From a virus (taxonomy: Duplodnaviria; Heunggongvirae; Uroviricota; Caudoviricetes), in IMG/VR virus record IMGVR_UViG_2526164689_000017, positions 1-6,648 of that record: a stretch of DNA of 6,648 bases; one strand, 5' to 3'. Position numbers and translations under genes: made by a program. Positions 1-6,648 of the stretch are shown piece after piece (position 1 is the stretch's first letter; each line of letters opens with the position of its first letter). Below the pieces are notes generated by a model. The model had not been told where the DNA came from and searched no databases. It worked only from the letters and a program-made list of their open reading frames with translations.

Positions 1-217
1 CTGCATAGCTGAATGACGTCACCATCCCCAGCGTATCCGTAAACTCATAACGGTATTTCACGTTAATCCCGTTAAGATTATCGCTACCGGGAGCGTTCGT
101 CCGGGCATGAAGATACCCCGCGCTCAGCGTGGCCTGCTGCTCAGACGCCCATGCAGGCGCGCCGGATACGGCCAGACAGATGGCTGCGGACAAAATGGCG
201 GCATAAAGTTTACGCAT
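1..217 (-). CDS. lom: Lom-like outer membrane protein (Ail/Lom/PagC family), N-terminal part; gene runs off the left edge of the window
   Basis: Not in the ORF track because it is truncated. Minus-strand ATG at 215-217 is preceded by GAGAGG about 5 nt upstream. My translation: MRKLYAAILSAAICLAVSGAPAWASEQQATLSAGYLHARTNAPGSDNLNGINVKYRYEFTDTLGMVTSFSYA. It has a signal-peptide-like N-terminus ending AWA, and the GINVKYRYE segment matches what I recall of lambda Lom. Position immediately downstream of J is as in lambda. Confidence 0.78.
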   Translation of the reverse strand, partial: MRKLYAAILSAAICLAVSGAPAWASEQQATLSAGYLHARTNAPGSDNLNGINVKYRYEFTDTLGMVTSFSYA

Positions 218-238
218 AATTACCTCTCGCTTTTCTGC

Positions 239-265
239 AATAAAAAAGGCGTCATTTCTGACGCC
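239..265 (-). terminator. Rho-independent terminator downstream of J
   Basis: Perfect 7-bp inverted repeat ggcgtca (248-254) / tgacgcc (259-265) with a 4-nt loop. On the minus strand it reads GGCGUCA-GAAA-UGACGCC followed by UUUUUUAUU (plus 239-247 aataaaaaa). It lies between the J stop (284-286) and the lom start (217). Confidence 0.7.
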
Positions 266-283
266 CGTTCTGGGTTATAAAAT

Positions 284-3200
284 TCAGCTGATACTGATAC
301 CTGCTGTGGATTTTTTCATCACCACAACCAGCAGATCGCTGATACTGGTTGTTGGTGTCCAGTTATTCGCTCCTGATGAAGATACGGTGAATGTCAGTGT
401 CAGCGTCCCCTGTCCGGCAGGCATATCTATAACTGAGGAAAATACGCCCTGAACATCCGTCGTGGACTGATTAAAAATCTCCTGACCATTGCGGGTCACT
501 CTTAACCGGCAGGTTGAATACCAGTATGACTGTTGGTTATTACTGTTGAAATTCTCATGCTTACCACCGCGGAATAACACTGGCGGTATCATGACCTGCC
601 GGTCAAACTTCTGATCATCACTGATTCTTACCGTGATGGTGCCACTGGCATAAGTGCTCGTGCGGGGGAAAGACTTGCTGACCGTTTTGACAATATCGCC
701 TTCAATCTGGTTGGCTGACAGTTTCCCCTTAATCTGACAGTTCTCATTAATCGTGACGTTGTTGAGCGTCCCTGAGTTCGCATTCACACTGCCACTGATA
801 TCCGCATTTTTCGCCGTCAGTCGCCCGTCCGGCGTCAGGGAAAATGCCGGAGGATTGCCGGATGACGTGATGCTCACCGCAAACAGTCGTTTCAGGAACA
901 CGTCGTTCATGAACAGCTGATTCCCCTGCGCCACAAATAACGGCGTGCTGTTGCCGCTCTCCGGATTTATCATCGCGATACGGTCAGCCAGCAGCAGTAT
1001 GTTGCTCAGTGGCTGGCCATCAGTATCCTCAATCCCTGCACCAATCCCGGCCACATAGGGAATGCCGTCTTTCGTTTTTTGAACCTTCAGCATGTACAGC
1101 GCAGCCAGGTCATCATTTGTGTCCTTCTGCACGCGCTGTATCTGCTGAATGGTGGCGCTCTGGTCTTCCAGCGTTTTACTGACCGTCTGTGTGATTTCAT
1201 TGCGGGTTTCTGTGATGGTGGTCTGCATTTCCGCCATCTCGTCCTTCAGCTGACTGTTGTCAATCTCTGCCCACAGCGCCTCTGCCAGATGCGTTTTTCC
1301 TATCTTTTCCCGGAAAAGTTCCAGATAGCCCGCAGCATCATTGCTCGCCCGTCCACTGGCTTCCACAAAAGCAGATTTACCCACCAGGTTGACGCTGCGC
1401 ACATAAAACCAGAAATCCTTTCCGGGCTTAATGTGCGGACCGGAGACACTCCACTGACTGCCGGTCCCCAGATAACGGGCAGAGGTTTCCACCTGTGCGG
1501 CGTCTGCAATTTTTGCCTCCGAAAACCAGAACTCAAACTGCACCGTCGGGTCATAAATGGTCAGTTTCGGGACTGCCGTTATCTGAAAATACCCCGGCGT
1601 CAGTTCAACACCGGCAGGCGCTGCCGGTGCGTTAATCCGGAACGTGGTGGTGGCGGGTTCGCCCTGCTGGCCATAGCTGTTAATCGCCCTGACCGTCAGG
1701 GTGTATTCCCCGAGAGGCAGGCCACTGAAACGGTGCTCCGTATCGGCAGTGATGGCGGTGGTCACCAGACGGCTGTCTTCTCCGCTTCCGCTGGTCAGGC
1801 GCAGACTGAAGCGCACACCCTTCACCACCCGCGGCGTGTCCCATTTCGCCTGTGCCAGATACTGACCGTCAGCCGCGCTCACCTCCACCGTCAGGTGCTG
1901 CACTGCCGGAGGGATGACGCTGTTCAGGGTGCCGCTCTGGTCGCTGTCAAAGTGCGCCCCGTTATCCACGATGGCTTCTTTTTCCGGTACGTGCTGCACT
2001 GCCGTGATGGCAAAGGTGCTGTCCGTGTTTTCCCGGATGGAGACACAGCGGAACAGGCGACGACGCAGTGACGGCAGGGAGAGTCCCCACACACCGTATG
2101 TCTCCACACCATCAGGCAGGGTGCTGACCTGTATCCGGTCCGGCGCGGGGTGTGCAGTGATGGCCACGCTCACCGGCTTACCGCTGCCGTTAATCAGGTT
2201 CACCGTGGCGGCACCTGTCTCCGGCAGGGTCACCTCACGGTCCAGTGTCAGGGTGCGGCTGGCGGCATCGATGGACAGGATACGTCCGCCGGTCATGGTC
2301 CCGGCATAGTCGTTATCACAGATTTCAATAATGTCTCCGGGTGTGTGACGCAGCCCCTGTGACCCGAGCGTGAAATCCACCGTCTGCGTTTCCAGCAGTC
2401 CGGTCTTTATCACCCACAGCCCGGCACGGTGGGCCTGACCGCGACTGGTGCAACCGAACGCATCCATCTTCAGCAGGTTGCGCCCGTAGCGCAGTATGGC
2501 TTCCGGGTCTTCCACCAGTTCCGTGGAGGTCTGCCAGCCGTTCTGCGGGTCGGTGTAATTCACCTCCACCGCCGTGTGGCGGTCCTTCAGGGCGCTGAAG
2601 CTGTAGCGAAACCCCACGCCGTTATCATCCACCACCACATCGCAGTTGGTGTACGGCCACACCACATCCGACGGGCGGTCCTGAACGAACGTCAGCGTCT
2701 GGCCGTTCCATACCGGCATACAGCGCATCGCCGAGCAGAAATCACTGAGAACGTCCCACGCCTTACGCTGTTGTGACAGGTACGCATTAAAGGTCATCCG
2801 CGGCTCTGTGCCCCCGAAGCCATCCGGGACACGCTGGTCACAGTACTGCCCGATGGCATACAGCGCCCATTTGTCCACGTCCGCGGCCCCCAGGCGTTTC
2901 CCCATCCCGTAGCGCGGGTGGGTCAGCATGTCCCACAGGCACCAGGCCGGGTTGTTGCTGTATGCCGGTTTCAGACTGCCGTCCCAGATACCACTGTACG
3001 TGCGTTTTTCCGGGTCATAGTTTGACGGCACCTGAATAATGCGACCGCGGATATGGTAGTTCACCGTCATCTGCTGACCGCCAAACTGCTCCGCATCCAC
3101 CTGCAGCCCCACAATCGCCGTGTTCGGGTAGCACTGTTTCACATCGATGATTTCGGTGTATGACGACCAGAGCGTCTTATTCTGCAGCTGGTCCGTGGTG

Positions 3201-3763
3201 CTGTCCGCCGTCTCCCTGACCATCCGGATGTTAAAGGGGCGCTCAGGCAGATTATCCAGAATCACCGAAGCGAGGAACTGTGAGGTGGTCTTGCCGTTAA
3301 TGGTGACATCCTTTTCCGTCACCCAGTTACCGTTACGCTGCAGCTGAATCAGCAGGCGGACGGATGCCGGGTTACGGTCACCCTGTGAGGTGGTCTGCAC
3401 CAGTGACTGCACCCCGAAGGTAACCCGCAGGCGGTCAATGTTCGCGGACGTAATGGTGCGCGTCACCGGCTTTGCCTTCGTCACTTCCACGCCCAGTGCG
3501 GTTTCAGAGCCGGATGACTCAAAACCTTCCGGCGGTGTCTGCTCCTGCTCCCCGGCGCGCCAGACCGCTGTCACACCGTGTATCACAGGATTACCGTCCG
3601 TGTCCGTCAGCGGGGTTTTGTTCACCAGAATACTCTGCAGCCCCTTCACCGGACCTTCCACCGGTCCCTCACCGATGGCGTCAATCACGCTCATCATCTG
3701 CGTGGACTTAAGATTGTCCTTTGCCTCAACCGGCGTGTGCGCCTTGCCGCCACCTTTACCCAC
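284..3763 (-). CDS. J: Central tail fibre / host specificity protein J (tip attachment protein), 1159 aa
   Basis: The track ORF begins [39 protein letters not shown], near-identical to the lambda J N-terminus as I recall it, with similarity continuing through the body (for example [50 protein letters not shown]). Start is GTG at 3761-3763 with GGAGAGGGGGA a few nt upstream on the minus strand. Stop is TGA at 284-286. Confidence 0.97.
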
Positions 3764-3798
3764 TCTGTCCCCCTCTCCTGTCTGATGTCTGAATCTGT

Positions 3799-3963
3799 TT
3801 ATGCCCCAAAAACGACAGGCACCCCGGAGGGTGCCTGTGTCATGACGGAATAAAATTTCTGAATTTCTTCACATTTTCTGTACGCCCCGTGGCAGATATC
3901 ATTCCCGGGCGTTACAGTTTTTTCGGGCCAATAAAAACAAAACCCCCTGTGGTTAATCTTCAT
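3799..3963 (-). CDS. Hypothetical small protein (54 aa) in the I-J spacer; weak candidate
   Basis: My own translation of the minus strand: ATG at 3961-3963, TAA at 3799-3801, giving [54 protein letters not shown]. Only a weak GGGA-type ribosome-binding site; uses rare AGG/AGA/GGG codons. The terminator hairpin at 3815-3838 lies inside its last 13 codons, so termination would precede the stop codon, which argues against a real gene. Confidence 0.15.
3803..3838 (-). terminator. Terminator-like hairpin between I and J, minus-strand orientation
   Basis: Perfect 10-bp inverted repeat acaggcaccc (3815-3824) / gggtgcctgt (3829-3838) with loop cgga. On the minus strand the hairpin is followed by CGUUUUUGGGG (plus 3804-3814). 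Whether it terminates or acts as a stability or processing element cannot be told from sequence. Confidence 0.5.
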
Positions 3964-3970
3964 TTTCTGT

Positions 3971-4003
3971 TCCCGCAGCCTCCATACACTGCGGGATTTT
4001 TTT
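3971..4003 (+). terminator. Terminator-like hairpin with U-tract in plus-strand orientation, just 3' of the I stop codon
   Basis: 8-bp stem tcccgcag (3971-3978) / ctgcggga (3989-3996) with a 10-nt loop cctccataca, followed on the plus strand by seven T (3997-4003). On the minus strand the tract is A-rich upstream of the stem, so the signal is plus-oriented, antisense to the tail operon. Confidence 0.4.
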
Positions 4004-4008
4004 ATGCT

Positions 4009-4689
4009 TTACCCCTGCCGCCCGATAACCACCACCTTCCCGCCACCACCTTCATCACGGGTGCTGATGTCCTGGGAGATTCGCCGGGAGCCAACCAGCA
4101 TTTCACCGTAAGGCACCGGCATCGGGTTCCCCTGGGCAATCATGTTATCCAGCGAGGAAAAGTACGTGTTCTGTCTGCCGTTATCCGTTGCCCTGTATTC
4201 CGGTGTTTTTGGCTTCGGGGCAAGCATCTGTGCCACACCACCCAGTATCATGCTGGCCCCCAGTGAAAACAGCATCGTGGTGGCAGAAAAACCACCGGCT
4301 GCCAGGGCTGAACCCCATAACGCCATTGATGCCCCGGCCGTGAAGAACGACCCCACGATGGCTGCCGCCCCCAGCACAATCTGCAGTCCGCCCTTTCCGG
4401 CTCCGGCCAGTCGCGGCACAATATGGATGACCGCCCCCTCACCCAGAGGTTCGTGAAGACGGGCGTACACCGCCTCCGGTGCCGTGTCCTCACCGCGAAT
4501 ACGTATCTGGTACCAGCCTTCGTTCATCTGACGGCGGAATCCCGGCACCTGTAACGACAGCGCCCGGATGGCTTCCGCTGCCGTGTTCACATACAGGCTG
4601 AGGCGGCGGCCAAATCGTTGCAAATCCCCGTGAAGGCAGATGCGTGCCAGTGGCGGTGACGCCAGACAGAATGCGTTCGTCGTTGCCAT
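4009..4689 (-). CDS. I: Tail assembly protein I, 226 aa
   Basis: The track ORF begins MATTNAFCLASPPLARICLHGDLQRFGRRLSLYVNTAAEAIRAL and ends in a Gly/Ala-rich hydrophobic segment, closely matching lambda I as recalled. Stop is TAA at 4009-4011. The start overlaps the 3' end of K by 103 nt in another frame. Confidence 0.93.
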   Translation of the reverse strand: MATTNAFCLASPPLARICLHGDLQRFGRRLSLYVNTAAEAIRALSLQVPGFRRQMNEGWYQIRIRGEDTAPEAVYARLHEPLGEGAVIHIVPRLAGAGKGGLQIVLGAAAIVGSFFTAGASMALWGSALAAGGFSATTMLFSLGASMILGGVAQMLAPKPKTPEYRATDNGRQNTYFSSLDNMIAQGNPMPVPYGEMLVGSRRISQDISTRDEGGGGKVVVIGRQG

Positions 4690-5330
4690 TTTTCGGAATA
4701 CCTCTCCCGTTTACTCAGTTGTTCAGGCAGATGGTGAAGCAGCTCACCGTTGCCGCAGTATATGGCGGCATGATTGGCCACCGATGCGCCAAAGCAGCAC
4801 AGCAGGATATCGCCAGGCTGTGCGGAAGGCAGGGAAATCCTGTAAAAACCAGTCGCCTCCATATTGTCCAGGTACAGGTTCTGACCGTTGCGCCACCAGT
4901 CATCCTCACGCTCAAAATCCGGCATATCAATTCCCGCCAGATGGTATGCATCCCGGAACAGCGTGTAACAGTCCGTCACCCCGTGCTCAAAGCGCCGTCC
5001 TGTCAGATGCGGCACACAGCGGAATTTATGAATCTCACCCCGGCAGACCAGCCACCAGGACAGTGCACTCTGCATCTGCAGCCGCCGGTCGGCCTCACTC
5101 AGCCAGGGCAGACCACCGGGATGACTGTGGACCAGTGCCACAATCTCCCCCTGCATTTCTGCCCGCAGCCAGTCTTCCGGTGCAATACGAAAATACGCCT
5201 CCGGCTCTGCAGAGATATTCACACAAGGGATATACCGCTCCCCCTCCGGCGTTCTCACCACGAAGCCGCACGACTCCGCAGGCGCACACCGCCGGGCATG
5301 CGCCAGAATCGCTGATTCAGTCTGTGTCAT
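4587..5330 (-). CDS. K: Tail assembly protein K, 247 aa from the internal Met of the 334-aa track ORF
   Basis: The segment from MTQTESAILAHARRCAPAESCGFVV onward matches lambda K as recalled. It contains a JAMM/MPN metalloprotease motif (HSHPGGLPWLSEAD, HxHx7Sx2D) and an NlpC/P60-like Cys/His pair (DCYTLF and NHAAIY). ATG at 5328-5330 lies 10 nt after the L stop. The upstream 87 codons of the track ORF overlap L and are rejected. Confidence 0.92.
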   Translation of the reverse strand: MTQTESAILAHARRCAPAESCGFVVRTPEGERYIPCVNISAEPEAYFRIAPEDWLRAEMQGEIVALVHSHPGGLPWLSEADRRLQMQSALSWWLVCRGEIHKFRCVPHLTGRRFEHGVTDCYTLFRDAYHLAGIDMPDFEREDDWWRNGQNLYLDNMEATGFYRISLPSAQPGDILLCCFGASVANHAAIYCGNGELLHHLPEQLSKRERYSEKWQRRTHSVWRHRHWHASAFTGICNDLAAASACM

Positions 5331-5340
5331 AAACCGGGAT

Positions 5341-6039
5341 TTACTGCGAAAGTTTATTAATGGAAAGGAAACCGCCAAAATTAGCCACCATGCCGCGCAT
5401 CTCACACCCGCGCATGCACTTGCTGCATCTGTCCTTACGGATATCGGTGGTGGGTTTATCGAACTCATCCGCCACAGCCCCGCCCGTGTAACCACACTCA
5501 TCAGAGCGGTAGGTCCACATACAGGTATTCGCCAGCATAATGCGACCGGGAAACAGCGCTCCGTCCGTCTCCGTCGGTGTTGCCAGCACAAACGAGGCTG
5601 TCATGGCCGTCAGCTCTGACATCTGCTCCACCACCCAGCGGTCGCTCAGCTCCTGCTCCGGGTCCGCTTCCGGATTGCCCGCCACAAAATTCACCGCATC
5701 CAGAAAACGGGCATACACCCGGCGGCGGACCACCGTGGCCCCCACCAGGCTCTGCAGGTCCTCCGCCATCCCGGTGACCAGACCAAACAGATTCGACACC
5801 GTCAGCGACGGGCGGGCACTGCTGCCCTTCCCGTTCATCTCAAAGCCACTGCCGTCAATCGGGTATGCCTGGTACTTCCGCCCCTGCCAGGTCACCGGCT
5901 CCCCTTTTTCATTCAGCTCATTACAGAAAAAATACCGCTCACCACCCTGGGCCTTCAGGTCAATTTCCCAGAGCACCACCCGCGGTGACTGCTCTGATTT
6001 AACCGACTCGTTCAGGCTTTCCCCGTGAATATGCTGCAT
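5341..6039 (-). CDS. L: Minor tail protein L, 232 aa
   Basis: The track ORF starts MQHIHGESLNESVKSEQSPRVVLWEIDLKAQGGERYFFCNELNEKGEPVTWQGRKYQ and ends FGGFLSINKLSQ, closely matching lambda L as recalled. The ATG overlaps the M stop as ATGA. Confidence 0.95.
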   Translation of the reverse strand: MQHIHGESLNESVKSEQSPRVVLWEIDLKAQGGERYFFCNELNEKGEPVTWQGRKYQAYPIDGSGFEMNGKGSSARPSLTVSNLFGLVTGMAEDLQSLVGATVVRRRVYARFLDAVNFVAGNPEADPEQELSDRWVVEQMSELTAMTASFVLATPTETDGALFPGRIMLANTCMWTYRSDECGYTGGAVADEFDKPTTDIRKDRCSKCMRGCEMRGMVANFGGFLSINKLSQ

Positions 6040-6380
6040 CAGTTCACCACCTGCTCAATCGTACAGCTGAAATCACTGTACCGGACGTTATCCGTGACGC
6101 TCCACTCCCGGCACACCACCCTCACCGTCCGGTTATGTTTCGGCGGTCGCCACAAAAAGGCACGGTAACCACCATGCCAGGATAAAAATTCATCCAGCCA
6201 GCGCCGGGTTGACTCATCCGTCACCCGGAACACCGCCTGAAACGTCTTCAGTTGAGGATTCAGTCCTGTGGGGCGACGCTGTTCATAACCGTCACCAAAC
6301 CGTACCCTCGCCACCGACGGTTTCTCACTCACCTGCATCCCTTCACGCGGGACCAGATGCAGCGTTTTTATCTCAGCCAC
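6039..6380 (-). CDS. M: Minor tail protein M, 113 aa
   Basis: The track ORF contains VRFGDGYEQRRP and ends CTIEQVVN, matching lambda M (VRFGDGY... EQVVN) as recalled. GTG start at 6378-6380 overlaps the H stop at 6373-6375. Position between H and L fits. Confidence 0.9.
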   Translation of the reverse strand: MAEIKTLHLVPREGMQVSEKPSVARVRFGDGYEQRRPTGLNPQLKTFQAVFRVTDESTRRWLDEFLSWHGGYRAFLWRPPKHNRTVRVVCREWSVTDNVRYSDFSCTIEQVVN

Positions 6381-6648
6381 TCAGCATTCCTCCGTCACGT
6401 CGCATGGACAGCATCACCGCCTGCACCCGCTGGTCAATCAGCTGCACAAGACTGCCTGCCGCCTCCGCCCCTATCTGTCCGTTAGCCCCGTCATTCTGAA
6501 TGGCGATGTGGTAGACCGGGGAATACACCAGACCGGCACTGCCGTTCATACTGCCCACCGCGCGTACGCCCAGCGAGCCATCCGCCGCCCGGGTCAGGGG
6601 CATAATGGCTTCAGGTCCGGCTTCCCCCATCAGCCCGGCCCTTTGCAA
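6373..6648 (-). CDS. H: Tail tape measure protein H, C-terminal part; gene continues beyond the right edge of the window
   Basis: Open frame to the window edge on the minus strand, in the gene position of lambda H immediately upstream of M. The C-terminal segment IQNDGANGQIGAEAAG...MRRDGGMLSG resembles the lambda H C-terminus as I recall it. Stop is TGA at 6373-6375. Confidence 0.82.
   Translation of the reverse strand: MQRAGLMGEAGPEAIMPLTRAADGSLGVRAVGSMNGSAGLVYSPVYHIAIQNDGANGQIGAEAAGSLVQLIDQRVQAVMLSMRRDGGMLSG

Follow-up and report, generated by a model that had tools for sequence, protein, structure and literature searches.

Prophage-encoded small RNAs and cargo genes

A survey of Hfq-bound RNAs in Escherichia coli O157:H7 Sakai by cross-linking and analysis of cDNAs (CRAC) lists three homologous plus-strand peaks, EcOnc22 in prophage Sp15, EcOnc23 in Sp14, and EcOnc24 in Sp11 (Tree et al. 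2014, PMC4104026, Table S2). EcOnc22 gave a band of ~85 nt on northern blots and was destabilized in an hfq deletion (PMC4104026); a 2021 review includes it as a small RNA (sRNA) confirmed by northern blotting and CRAC, with targets unknown (PMC7873438). Here we describe a predicted member of this family in a 6,648-nt stretch of a tailed-phage sequence of the class Caudoviricetes (positions 1 to 6,648 of IMG/VR record IMGVR_UViG_2526164689_000017), which was analyzed at its full length and is referred to below as the window. The sRNA cassette lies in the 245-bp spacer (positions 3764 to 4008) between the genes for the tail assembly protein I and the tail tip/host specificity protein J, on the plus strand, antisense to the tail genes.

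Comparable RNAs are encoded at other sites of lambdoid prophages. HnrS (EcOnc10-12), AsxR (EcOnc02), and AgvB (EcOnc01) are likewise short, Hfq-associated RNAs with intrinsic terminators, encoded in lambdoid late regions, present in multiple copies through polylysogeny, and enriched in enterohemorrhagic (EHEC) and enteropathogenic E. coli. AsxR, reported to be antisense to the stx2 transcript, and AgvB both combine a conserved 3' part with a variable 5' part, resembling in this the I-J sRNA (Tree et al., PMC4104026). The three RNAs are unrelated to it in sequence and lie at other sites, either downstream of PR' or in the stretch that separates the lysis from the packaging genes; they also have defined targets (hha, FnrS, and GcvB), whereas the I-J sRNA has no defined target. 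In Sakai Sp9, HnrS (EcOnc12; locus L006, positions 449 to 514, minus strand) is found just after the Rz/endopeptidase genes and on the opposite strand; prophage sRNAs oriented against the direction of the late genes therefore recur at several junctions of the late region.

Morons are autonomously acquired cassettes within late operons, such as sodCI of Salmonella Gifsy-2 and lom and bor of lambda. The sodC-F genes found at the I-J junction of O157 prophages were studied by D'Orazio et al. 2008 (PMC2569942). Like the cassette in the window, sodC-F forms an autonomous unit that has a terminator of its own and a distinct base composition, is inserted between two late genes, and is oriented against the late operon, in Sp10 at this very I-J junction; its expression is from the prophage. 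The difference lies in the cargo, which in the window is a noncoding RNA of ~95 nt and not a protein gene.

Assignment of the predicted spacer RNA to the EcOnc22/23/24 family

The Table S2 coordinates of EcOnc22, EcOnc23, and EcOnc24 fall in the I-J spacers of Sp15, Sp14, and Sp11, respectively, with the tail genes on the minus strand. The EcOnc coordinates of that table (loci L002 to L007) are shifted by approximately +135 to +137 nt between NC_002695.1 and NC_002695.2, as measured at 2.17 to 2.90 Mb, with similar values at 1.42 and 1.78 Mb. The offset was first calibrated roughly on Esr41 (by Rfam), HnrS (by its terminator), and StxS (by tR'). It was then fixed at +135 to +137 by the read fragment GCCTGAAAAATAACTCCATAACGTTAATCTTCA, which the supplement of a study of RNase E by cross-linking with ligation and sequencing of the resulting hybrids (CLASH) gives for EcOnc22/23/24 (PMC5286369) and which is present only on the plus strand of the Sakai spacers. 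Used uncorrected, the Table S2 coordinates assign the sRNAs to the wrong feature. EcOnc22 then falls on the J-proximal hairpin described below, an identification that conflicts with the listed strand and is an artifact of the offset.

After correction, the Hfq peak reads GATGCCTGAAAAATAACTCCATAACGTTAATCTTCATCGTTCTCTCCCGCAGCTCCGCTAA and comprises the RNA body and the 5' half of the terminator (a hairpin followed by seven T residues, T7) beside the I stop codon. A nucleotide profile built with nhmmer from 28 alleles, excluding the type found in the window, matches window positions 3909 to 4003 on the plus strand (E = 2.2e-13), and a profile of the Sakai alleles only matches positions 3911 to 4002 on the same strand (E = 1.2e-8). 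Measured from the I stop codon, the window and Sakai copies have the same offset, and both are antisense to the tail genes. They share the I-J slot, the strand, the terminator stem with its T7, the U-rich pre-terminator motif, the position of the -10 element, and the upstream block; they differ in the 5' two-thirds, which diverge. The cassette in the window is very probably a new allele of the known EcOnc22/23/24 sRNA family, that is, a real gene but not a new one. The preliminary description of this DNA, made from the sequence without database searches, had seen a possible 54-codon open reading frame (ORF) in the spacer; the cargo is instead an sRNA gene on the plus strand, already published as EcOnc22/23/24.

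Hfq binding, the ~85-nt RNA, and its dependence on Hfq have been published solely for the Sakai allele. For the window allele, expression, the exact 5' end, Hfq binding, trans-acting regulation, and targets are predictions from its sequence and its relatives. In general, an Hfq-binding module consists of a U-rich tract, then a hairpin, and then a poly-U tail; the window allele keeps all three, an arrangement that is no more than suggestive of Hfq binding.

Rfam returns no match in the window at gathering thresholds, and searches with the window and Sakai Sp15 spacers give weak matches only, far below the gathering scores. Among these, STnc100 (E = 0.012; 21 bits versus the 47 needed) matches the terminator hairpin only and was rejected. 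HnrS (EcOnc10-12) was also rejected as the identity of the cassette, as it sits between the lysis and packaging genes.

Predicted promoter, RNA body, and terminator

The layout of the cassette was derived from an alignment of 42 unique spacers in the sRNA sense, with 17 diverse alleles used to judge the invariance of stems and motifs; the homology and anatomy described here are secure. The predicted transcript extends over ~95 nt (positions 3909 to 4003, plus strand). It starts with a conserved GCGTTA followed by a T-run (from 3909) and continues as a variable body up to approximately 3952. The conserved motif TTAATCTTCAT (3953 to 3963) follows and opens the pre-terminator U-rich tract, probably the Hfq-binding module; its (A/G)ATCTT part is invariant in the 17 alleles. 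The intrinsic terminator (3971 to 4003) consists of an 8-bp stem, TCCCGCAG/CTGCGGGA (3971 to 3978 and 3989 to 3996), a 10-nt loop, and T7 (3997 to 4003), and ends 5 nt before the I stop codon. The stem CCCGCAG/CTGCGGG is likewise invariant in the 17 alleles, with loops ranging from 10 to 21 nt, and the terminator scan calls it in the relatives. Structure prediction leaves the RNA single-stranded outside the terminator, where it has a U-run at its 5' end and an A-rich tract, as is usual for Hfq-dependent sRNAs of the seed type. The 3' end is firm. The 5' end would be at 3909, as judged from the -10 element, or at ~3925 if the 5' end of the CLASH reads is the true one; these reads start 16 nt inside the 5' end predicted from the -10 element, possibly through processing by RNase E.

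Upstream of the transcript, the -10 element TATCAT (3897 to 3902, plus strand; TATAAT or AATAAT in other alleles) is conserved in position in all ~240- and ~340-bp junctions. It is preceded at a distance of 17 bp by a weak -35-like hexamer, TTTTCT (3874 to 3879). In two relatives (loci L102 and L083), the promoter scan finds TTCACA-16-TATAAT, which agrees with the consensus at 11 of 12 positions and has the strand and the place expected of the sRNA promoter. The same scan finds no site above threshold in the window because TTTTCT-17-TATCAT is weak, and the window promoter is thus recognizable only through its relatives.

An A/T-rich block of 39 nt (3840 to 3878, plus strand) is near-invariant in all 32 unique ~240-bp spacers, and its ~30 promoter-proximal nt are also kept in the ~340-bp class. 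The ~18 to 20 nt between this block and the -10 element vary freely. Conservation of the block exceeds that of the sRNA body. It may serve as an UP element, as a site for a regulator, or as a piece of a sense-strand RNA that has its end at the 3838-3815 hairpin. The sequence CTG-N10-CAT found in it is near to, but is not, the CTG-N10-CAG of a LexA box.

Allelic variation, candidate seed, and proposed mode of action

The identity between the window and Sakai alleles is concentrated in the 3' third. Immediately upstream of the conserved motif, positions 3943 to 3952 form an allele-variable stretch that reads CCCCCTGTGG in the window and CTCCATAACG in Sakai and is likely to be the target-pairing seed. 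The mRNA of yjbJ (ECs_5028) is a CLASH partner of the Sakai allele, with the pairing inside the coding sequence (PMC5286369). The core of this chimera, CCAUAACGUU:AACGUUAUGG, is a perfect pairing of 10 nt and falls in the variable stretch. The predicted duplex between the Sakai allele and yjbJ reaches -34.3 kcal/mol (shuffled sequences, -20.2 +/- 3.5; none of 500 reach -34.3), whereas the window allele reaches -18.9 kcal/mol, without a comparable advantage.

Several observations weigh against the assignment of the window cassette to a functional sRNA family or limit its reach. The window allele is just 65% identical overall to the validated Sakai allele. Its promoter hexamers are weak (8 of 12 matches), and the Sakai allele that was detected is likewise without a good -35. 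There is no covariation in the sRNA terminator stem among the 17 alleles; covariation is uninformative here because the stem never varies. The fold of the whole transcript is no more stable than those of shuffled sequences (z = -0.89), as expected for a seed-type sRNA, although this does not count in favor of one. Even for Sakai the 5' end is ambiguous, as the -10 element predicts an RNA of at most 91 nt, the CLASH start one of 75 nt, and the northern blot shows ~85 nt. CLASH support for any target amounts to 1 to 2 reads with nonsignificant p-values (PMC5286369), so that yjbJ is a lead and not a target. Finally, the Sakai alleles in Sp10 (sodC class, see below) and Sp12 (340-bp class) are not among the 2014 Hfq peaks, only the three-copy Sakai allele having been called; not every allele is therefore demonstrably Hfq-bound or expressed. 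An allele of the window type was not found in the tail regions of the three Sakai prophages Sp9, Sp10, and Sp12, which makes the Sakai data uninformative on this allele.

The combination of a variable seed and a constant scaffold is directly visible in the alignments. It might reflect a diversifying family, in which a constant scaffold (promoter block, U-rich Hfq module, and terminator) carries a swappable seed and target specificity differs from prophage to prophage, the Sakai allele being directed at yjbJ and the window allele at another mRNA. In a polylysogen, the several copies would together make up a combinatorial layer of regulation, possibly hitting the tail-operon mRNAs of rival prophages. 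We regard this as a tentative proposal, with the odds against it; if it is true, the window allele represents an uncharacterized specificity class.

As the most likely mode of action, host RNA polymerase would transcribe the sRNA from its own sigma-70 promoter in a lysogen, where the late operon is silent. Hfq would bind the U-rich tract, the terminator, and the poly-U tail and present the single-stranded body, which might pair imperfectly with host or prophage mRNAs, with the stretch at ~3943 to 3952 acting as the seed. An allele-variable seed would therefore confer different target specificities in different prophages. Upon induction, Q-antiterminated polymerase would cross the cassette head-on and read through the sense-strand hairpin.

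A different possibility is that the RNA acts mainly in cis, by pairing with the I-J part of the late tail mRNA, from its own prophage or from co-resident ones, and triggering cleavage or altering the expression of J and lom. It would thereby hold down leaky or competing expression of tail genes rather than regulate host genes. All junction classes have it strictly antisense to the tail operon, its complementarity to the I-J intercistronic mRNA is perfect, and HnrS in Sp9 is similarly opposite in strand to the adjacent late (lysis) gene. With up to 8 copies per genome, in related but nonidentical alleles, the conserved 3' third common to the alleles could also pair across prophages. However, the RNA ends short of the I stop codon, and its start is over 130 nt away from the ribosome-binding site of J, so that it covers no coding or initiation sequence. 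Lambda late mRNA is barely transcribed in uninduced lysogens, and a target in cis would accordingly be expected to be scarce under the very conditions in which the RNA was detected. The dependence on Hfq and the chimeras with unlinked core-genome mRNAs such as yjbJ are the behavior of a trans-acting RNA, and regulation mainly in cis appears unlikely.

Junction classes and the relationship to sodC

I-J junctions were taken from 86 sequences, namely, 85 loci encoding relatives of I and the window itself. Their lengths are discrete. Junctions of 60 bp are found in lambda and in lambda-like prophages of E. coli, Shigella, and E. ruysiae, and junctions of 86 to 90 bp are found in the Rahnella and Pantoea relatives. 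The class of the window covers 234 to 260 bp (32 unique sequences), a class with a different J-proximal part covers 336 to 344 bp, and a class with an opposite-strand ORF covers 848 to 851 bp. The product of this ORF is a Cu,Zn superoxide dismutase (Pfam Sod_Cu, E = 3.9e-32), in agreement with the annotation of Sakai Sp10, where I (ECs_1987) is followed by a Cu/Zn superoxide dismutase gene on the opposite strand (ECs_1989) and by J (ECs_1990). The discrete lengths and the presence of sodC in the ~850-bp class identify the I-J junction as a genuine cargo site.

In the ~340-bp junctions (L083, positions 681 to 1025; Sakai Sp12, L113, positions 19393 to 19733), the sRNA cassette is kept and the J-proximal part is replaced by a segment of ~190 bp, which contains a bidirectional-looking hairpin, AAACCCCGGTATC-TGCT-GATACCGGGGTTT, and a further promoter-like site. 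In Sakai Sp9 (L111, positions 9148 to 9773), a short "minor tail protein" gene (ECs_1805, 438 bp) is followed by a gap of 187 bp and then by J; this tail module looks defective because no K- or I-type assembly genes are annotated between ECs_1805 and J.

The preliminary description had likened the spacer to a moron and proposed to look for junctions with and without the extra segment. Both kinds exist between homologous I and J genes: the cassette is absent from the collinear 60-bp junctions of lambda and lambda-like prophages, and the extra segment is present in those of ~240, ~340, and ~850 bp. The base composition is distinct (GC content of 0.429 versus 0.558 to 0.608), the terminator is clear, and the promoter is near-consensus in the relatives, with 8 of 12 matches in the window. 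A protein-coding cargo, as in classical morons, is missing, the only ORF being unconserved and the cargo being an sRNA. The AT-rich layout of an autonomous unit at a true cargo site is thus borne out, with a cargo other than the 54-codon ORF.

In the sodC class, the sRNA module follows sodC on its 3' side, reads in the same direction, and is closed by the same terminator beside I; other sequence takes the place of the TATAAT element and of the J-proximal hairpin, with a breakpoint between the -10 element and the start region. Two origins would account for this, a displacement of the sRNA promoter by sodC or a descent of the sRNA module from the distal 3' region of a sodC unit. The latter origin allows the cassette to be seen as a decaying and functionless remnant of a sodC moron, made up of its distal 3' untranslated region and terminator, as the position of the module directly 3' of sodC in the ~850-bp class and the gene order of Sp10 (I, opposite-strand superoxide dismutase gene, J) would suggest. 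However, the junctions devoid of sodC have a near-consensus promoter of their own, TTCACA-16-TATAAT, which is missing from the sodC class, and the breakpoint fits a displacement of this promoter by sodC at least equally well. Conservation over the 32 unique alleles is gene-like, the Sakai form is an abundant Hfq-bound RNA, and the published Hfq and northern data speak against a lack of function. A functionless remnant is accordingly improbable.

Composition of the spacer and the sense-strand hairpin

The spacer is flanked upstream, in the direction of the tail operon, by the I gene (positions 4009 to 4689, minus strand; RefSeq homolog, "tail assembly protein"), whose product is 96 to 99% identical to those of 80 viral-contig loci, and downstream by the J gene (284 to 3763, minus strand, GTG start; RefSeq homolog, gpJ). 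A probable Shine-Dalgarno region of J, GGAGAGGGGGA, is found at 3768 to 3778 on the minus strand. As had been noted from the sequence, the spacer is longer than its lambda counterpart, with 245 bp as opposed to 60 bp (NC_001416, positions 15445 to 15504), and richer in AT than its flanks, with a GC content of 0.469 versus 0.608 for I and 0.574 for J. The low GC content is restricted to the I-proximal 168 bp (0.429), and the J-proximal 77 bp are at 0.558. The spacer is a composite of an ordinary lambda-type intercistronic region (J-proximal ~77 bp, 3764 to 3840) and a small-RNA gene (I-proximal ~168 bp, 3841 to 4008).

The two oppositely oriented terminator-like hairpins of the preliminary description were both recovered as perfect inverted repeats on opposite strands. 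One is the sRNA terminator. The other is a sense-strand intercistronic hairpin (3808 to 3838, minus strand), ACAGGCACCC-TCCG-GGGTGCCTGT followed by CGTTTTT, with a 10-bp stem (3815 to 3824 and 3829 to 3838); in full it reads CAGGCACCC-TCCG-GGGTGCCTG, then TCGTTTTTGGGG. Simple promoter and terminator scans of positions 3600 to 4200 find no more sites than in shuffled sequence, and the terminator scan calls only the J-proximal hairpin (1 site versus 0.8 expected from shuffles); the significance of the hairpins therefore rests on their conservation.

At the same position, lambda and the lambda-like 60-bp spacers have AAACCGCC, a 4-nt loop (TGCG in lambda, TCCG in loci L010 and L013), and GGCGGTTT, followed by TGTC(A/G)TTTATGG, and the distant Rahnella and Pantoea relatives have a hairpin with T7 at the same place. 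The lambda and window hairpins share the position, the 4-nt loop, a G+C-rich stem, and a T-rich tail ahead of the J ribosome-binding site; they differ in the sequence of the stem and in its length, which is 10 bp in the window and 8 bp in lambda. Stem variants were tabulated directly, since MAFFT placed the arms of the lambda and window hairpins out of register. In the window's class, CACCC/GGGTG is found at 25 loci, CATCC/GGATG at 16, a U.G pair at 5, and a C.A mismatch at 2, the change from C-G to T-A being compensatory. Because lambda and other relatives have an equivalent and because of this compensatory change, the J-proximal hairpin is part of the normal I-J junction, ancestral as judged from these comparisons and outside the insertion. 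The spacer does contain extra DNA relative to lambda, as had been claimed, but just ~168 to 185 bp were added. The hairpin may be a terminator for polymerase lacking the Q modification, a stabilizer of mRNA 3' ends, or a processing site; no annotation for it was found in the lambda record NC_001416. The unusual spacer is thereby explained by a known element together with an ancestral lambda hairpin, and not by a new kind of system.

Rejected readings: the 54-codon ORF and an ordinary spacer

The 54-codon ORF (3799 to 3963, minus strand) does exist in the window, where it is open, with an ATG start complementary to the conserved AATCTTCAT motif and an end shortly past the sense-strand hairpin, as might be expected if the spacer carried a protein-coding moron. 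In many other alleles the ATG is ACG, and single-base indels shorten the frame to 6 to 41 codons; in the commonest allele, which has 246 bp and one extra base compared to the window, the frame stops at 31 codons. The translation has no Pfam match, and the conservation of the spacer tracks RNA and promoter elements, not codons. The ORF is judged spurious and is refuted as a conserved gene, leaving a protein-coding moron highly improbable. Equally remote is an ordinary intergenic region with chance or generic palindromes, which the shuffled-level scans and the lack of an Rfam match would allow but which is contradicted by the modular conservation, the compensatory change in one stem, the invariant stem and free loop of the other, the patchy distribution associated with Shiga toxin-producing E. 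coli (STEC), and the published Hfq-CRAC, northern, and CLASH data for homologous spacers.

Distribution

An 801-bp query covering the junction (window positions 3500 to 4300) matches 151 phage records, nearly all of them from Shiga toxin (Stx)-converting or related E. coli phages, and 143 of these cover at least 80% of the query. The spacer is thus no peculiarity of the window but the usual state in lambdoid phages of the Stx/EHEC group. Used as a query by itself, it finds 147 records; the match extends over at least 80% of the spacer in 104 of these and reaches an identity of at least 99% in 17.

Among complete E. coli genomes, the segment comprising promoter and sRNA is found in 529 of 5,426, in 1 to 8 copies (median, 3), whereas the tail genes of the window as a whole have matches in 4,650. 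The matches listed are mostly from STEC serotypes (O157:H7, O111, O145, O103, and O45), and none of them has an annotation at the sRNA site. An sRNA family found in approximately one-tenth of complete E. coli genomes, mostly, among the matches listed, in Shiga toxin-producing lineages, is thus without annotation in RefSeq and Rfam. Its placement (I-J junction, antisense strand, and sodC slot), the anatomy of promoter, candidate seed, and terminator, and the differences between alleles in the probable seed provide a basis for annotation and for the search for targets.

No complete E. coli genome exceeds 96.6% identity to the window as a whole, although its spacer is 100% identical to those of several Stx1a phages; this comparison points to a probable mosaic origin of the window. 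The exact spacer allele of the window is also carried by E. coli strains E2865 and 2013C-3252 (100% matches). Three very short contigs labeled Streptomyces flavalbus (L008), Parendozoicomonas haliclonae (L012), and Clostridiales metagenome-assembled genome (L020) encode an E. coli prophage I protein with 91 to 98% identity and most likely represent assembly contamination. In the closest genome (L001, positions 1118 to 1717), J is followed on its 3' side by a gene for an outer-membrane protein of the Ail/Lom family, another classical moron, and then by a tail fiber gene; the window ends inside this region (positions 1 to 280).

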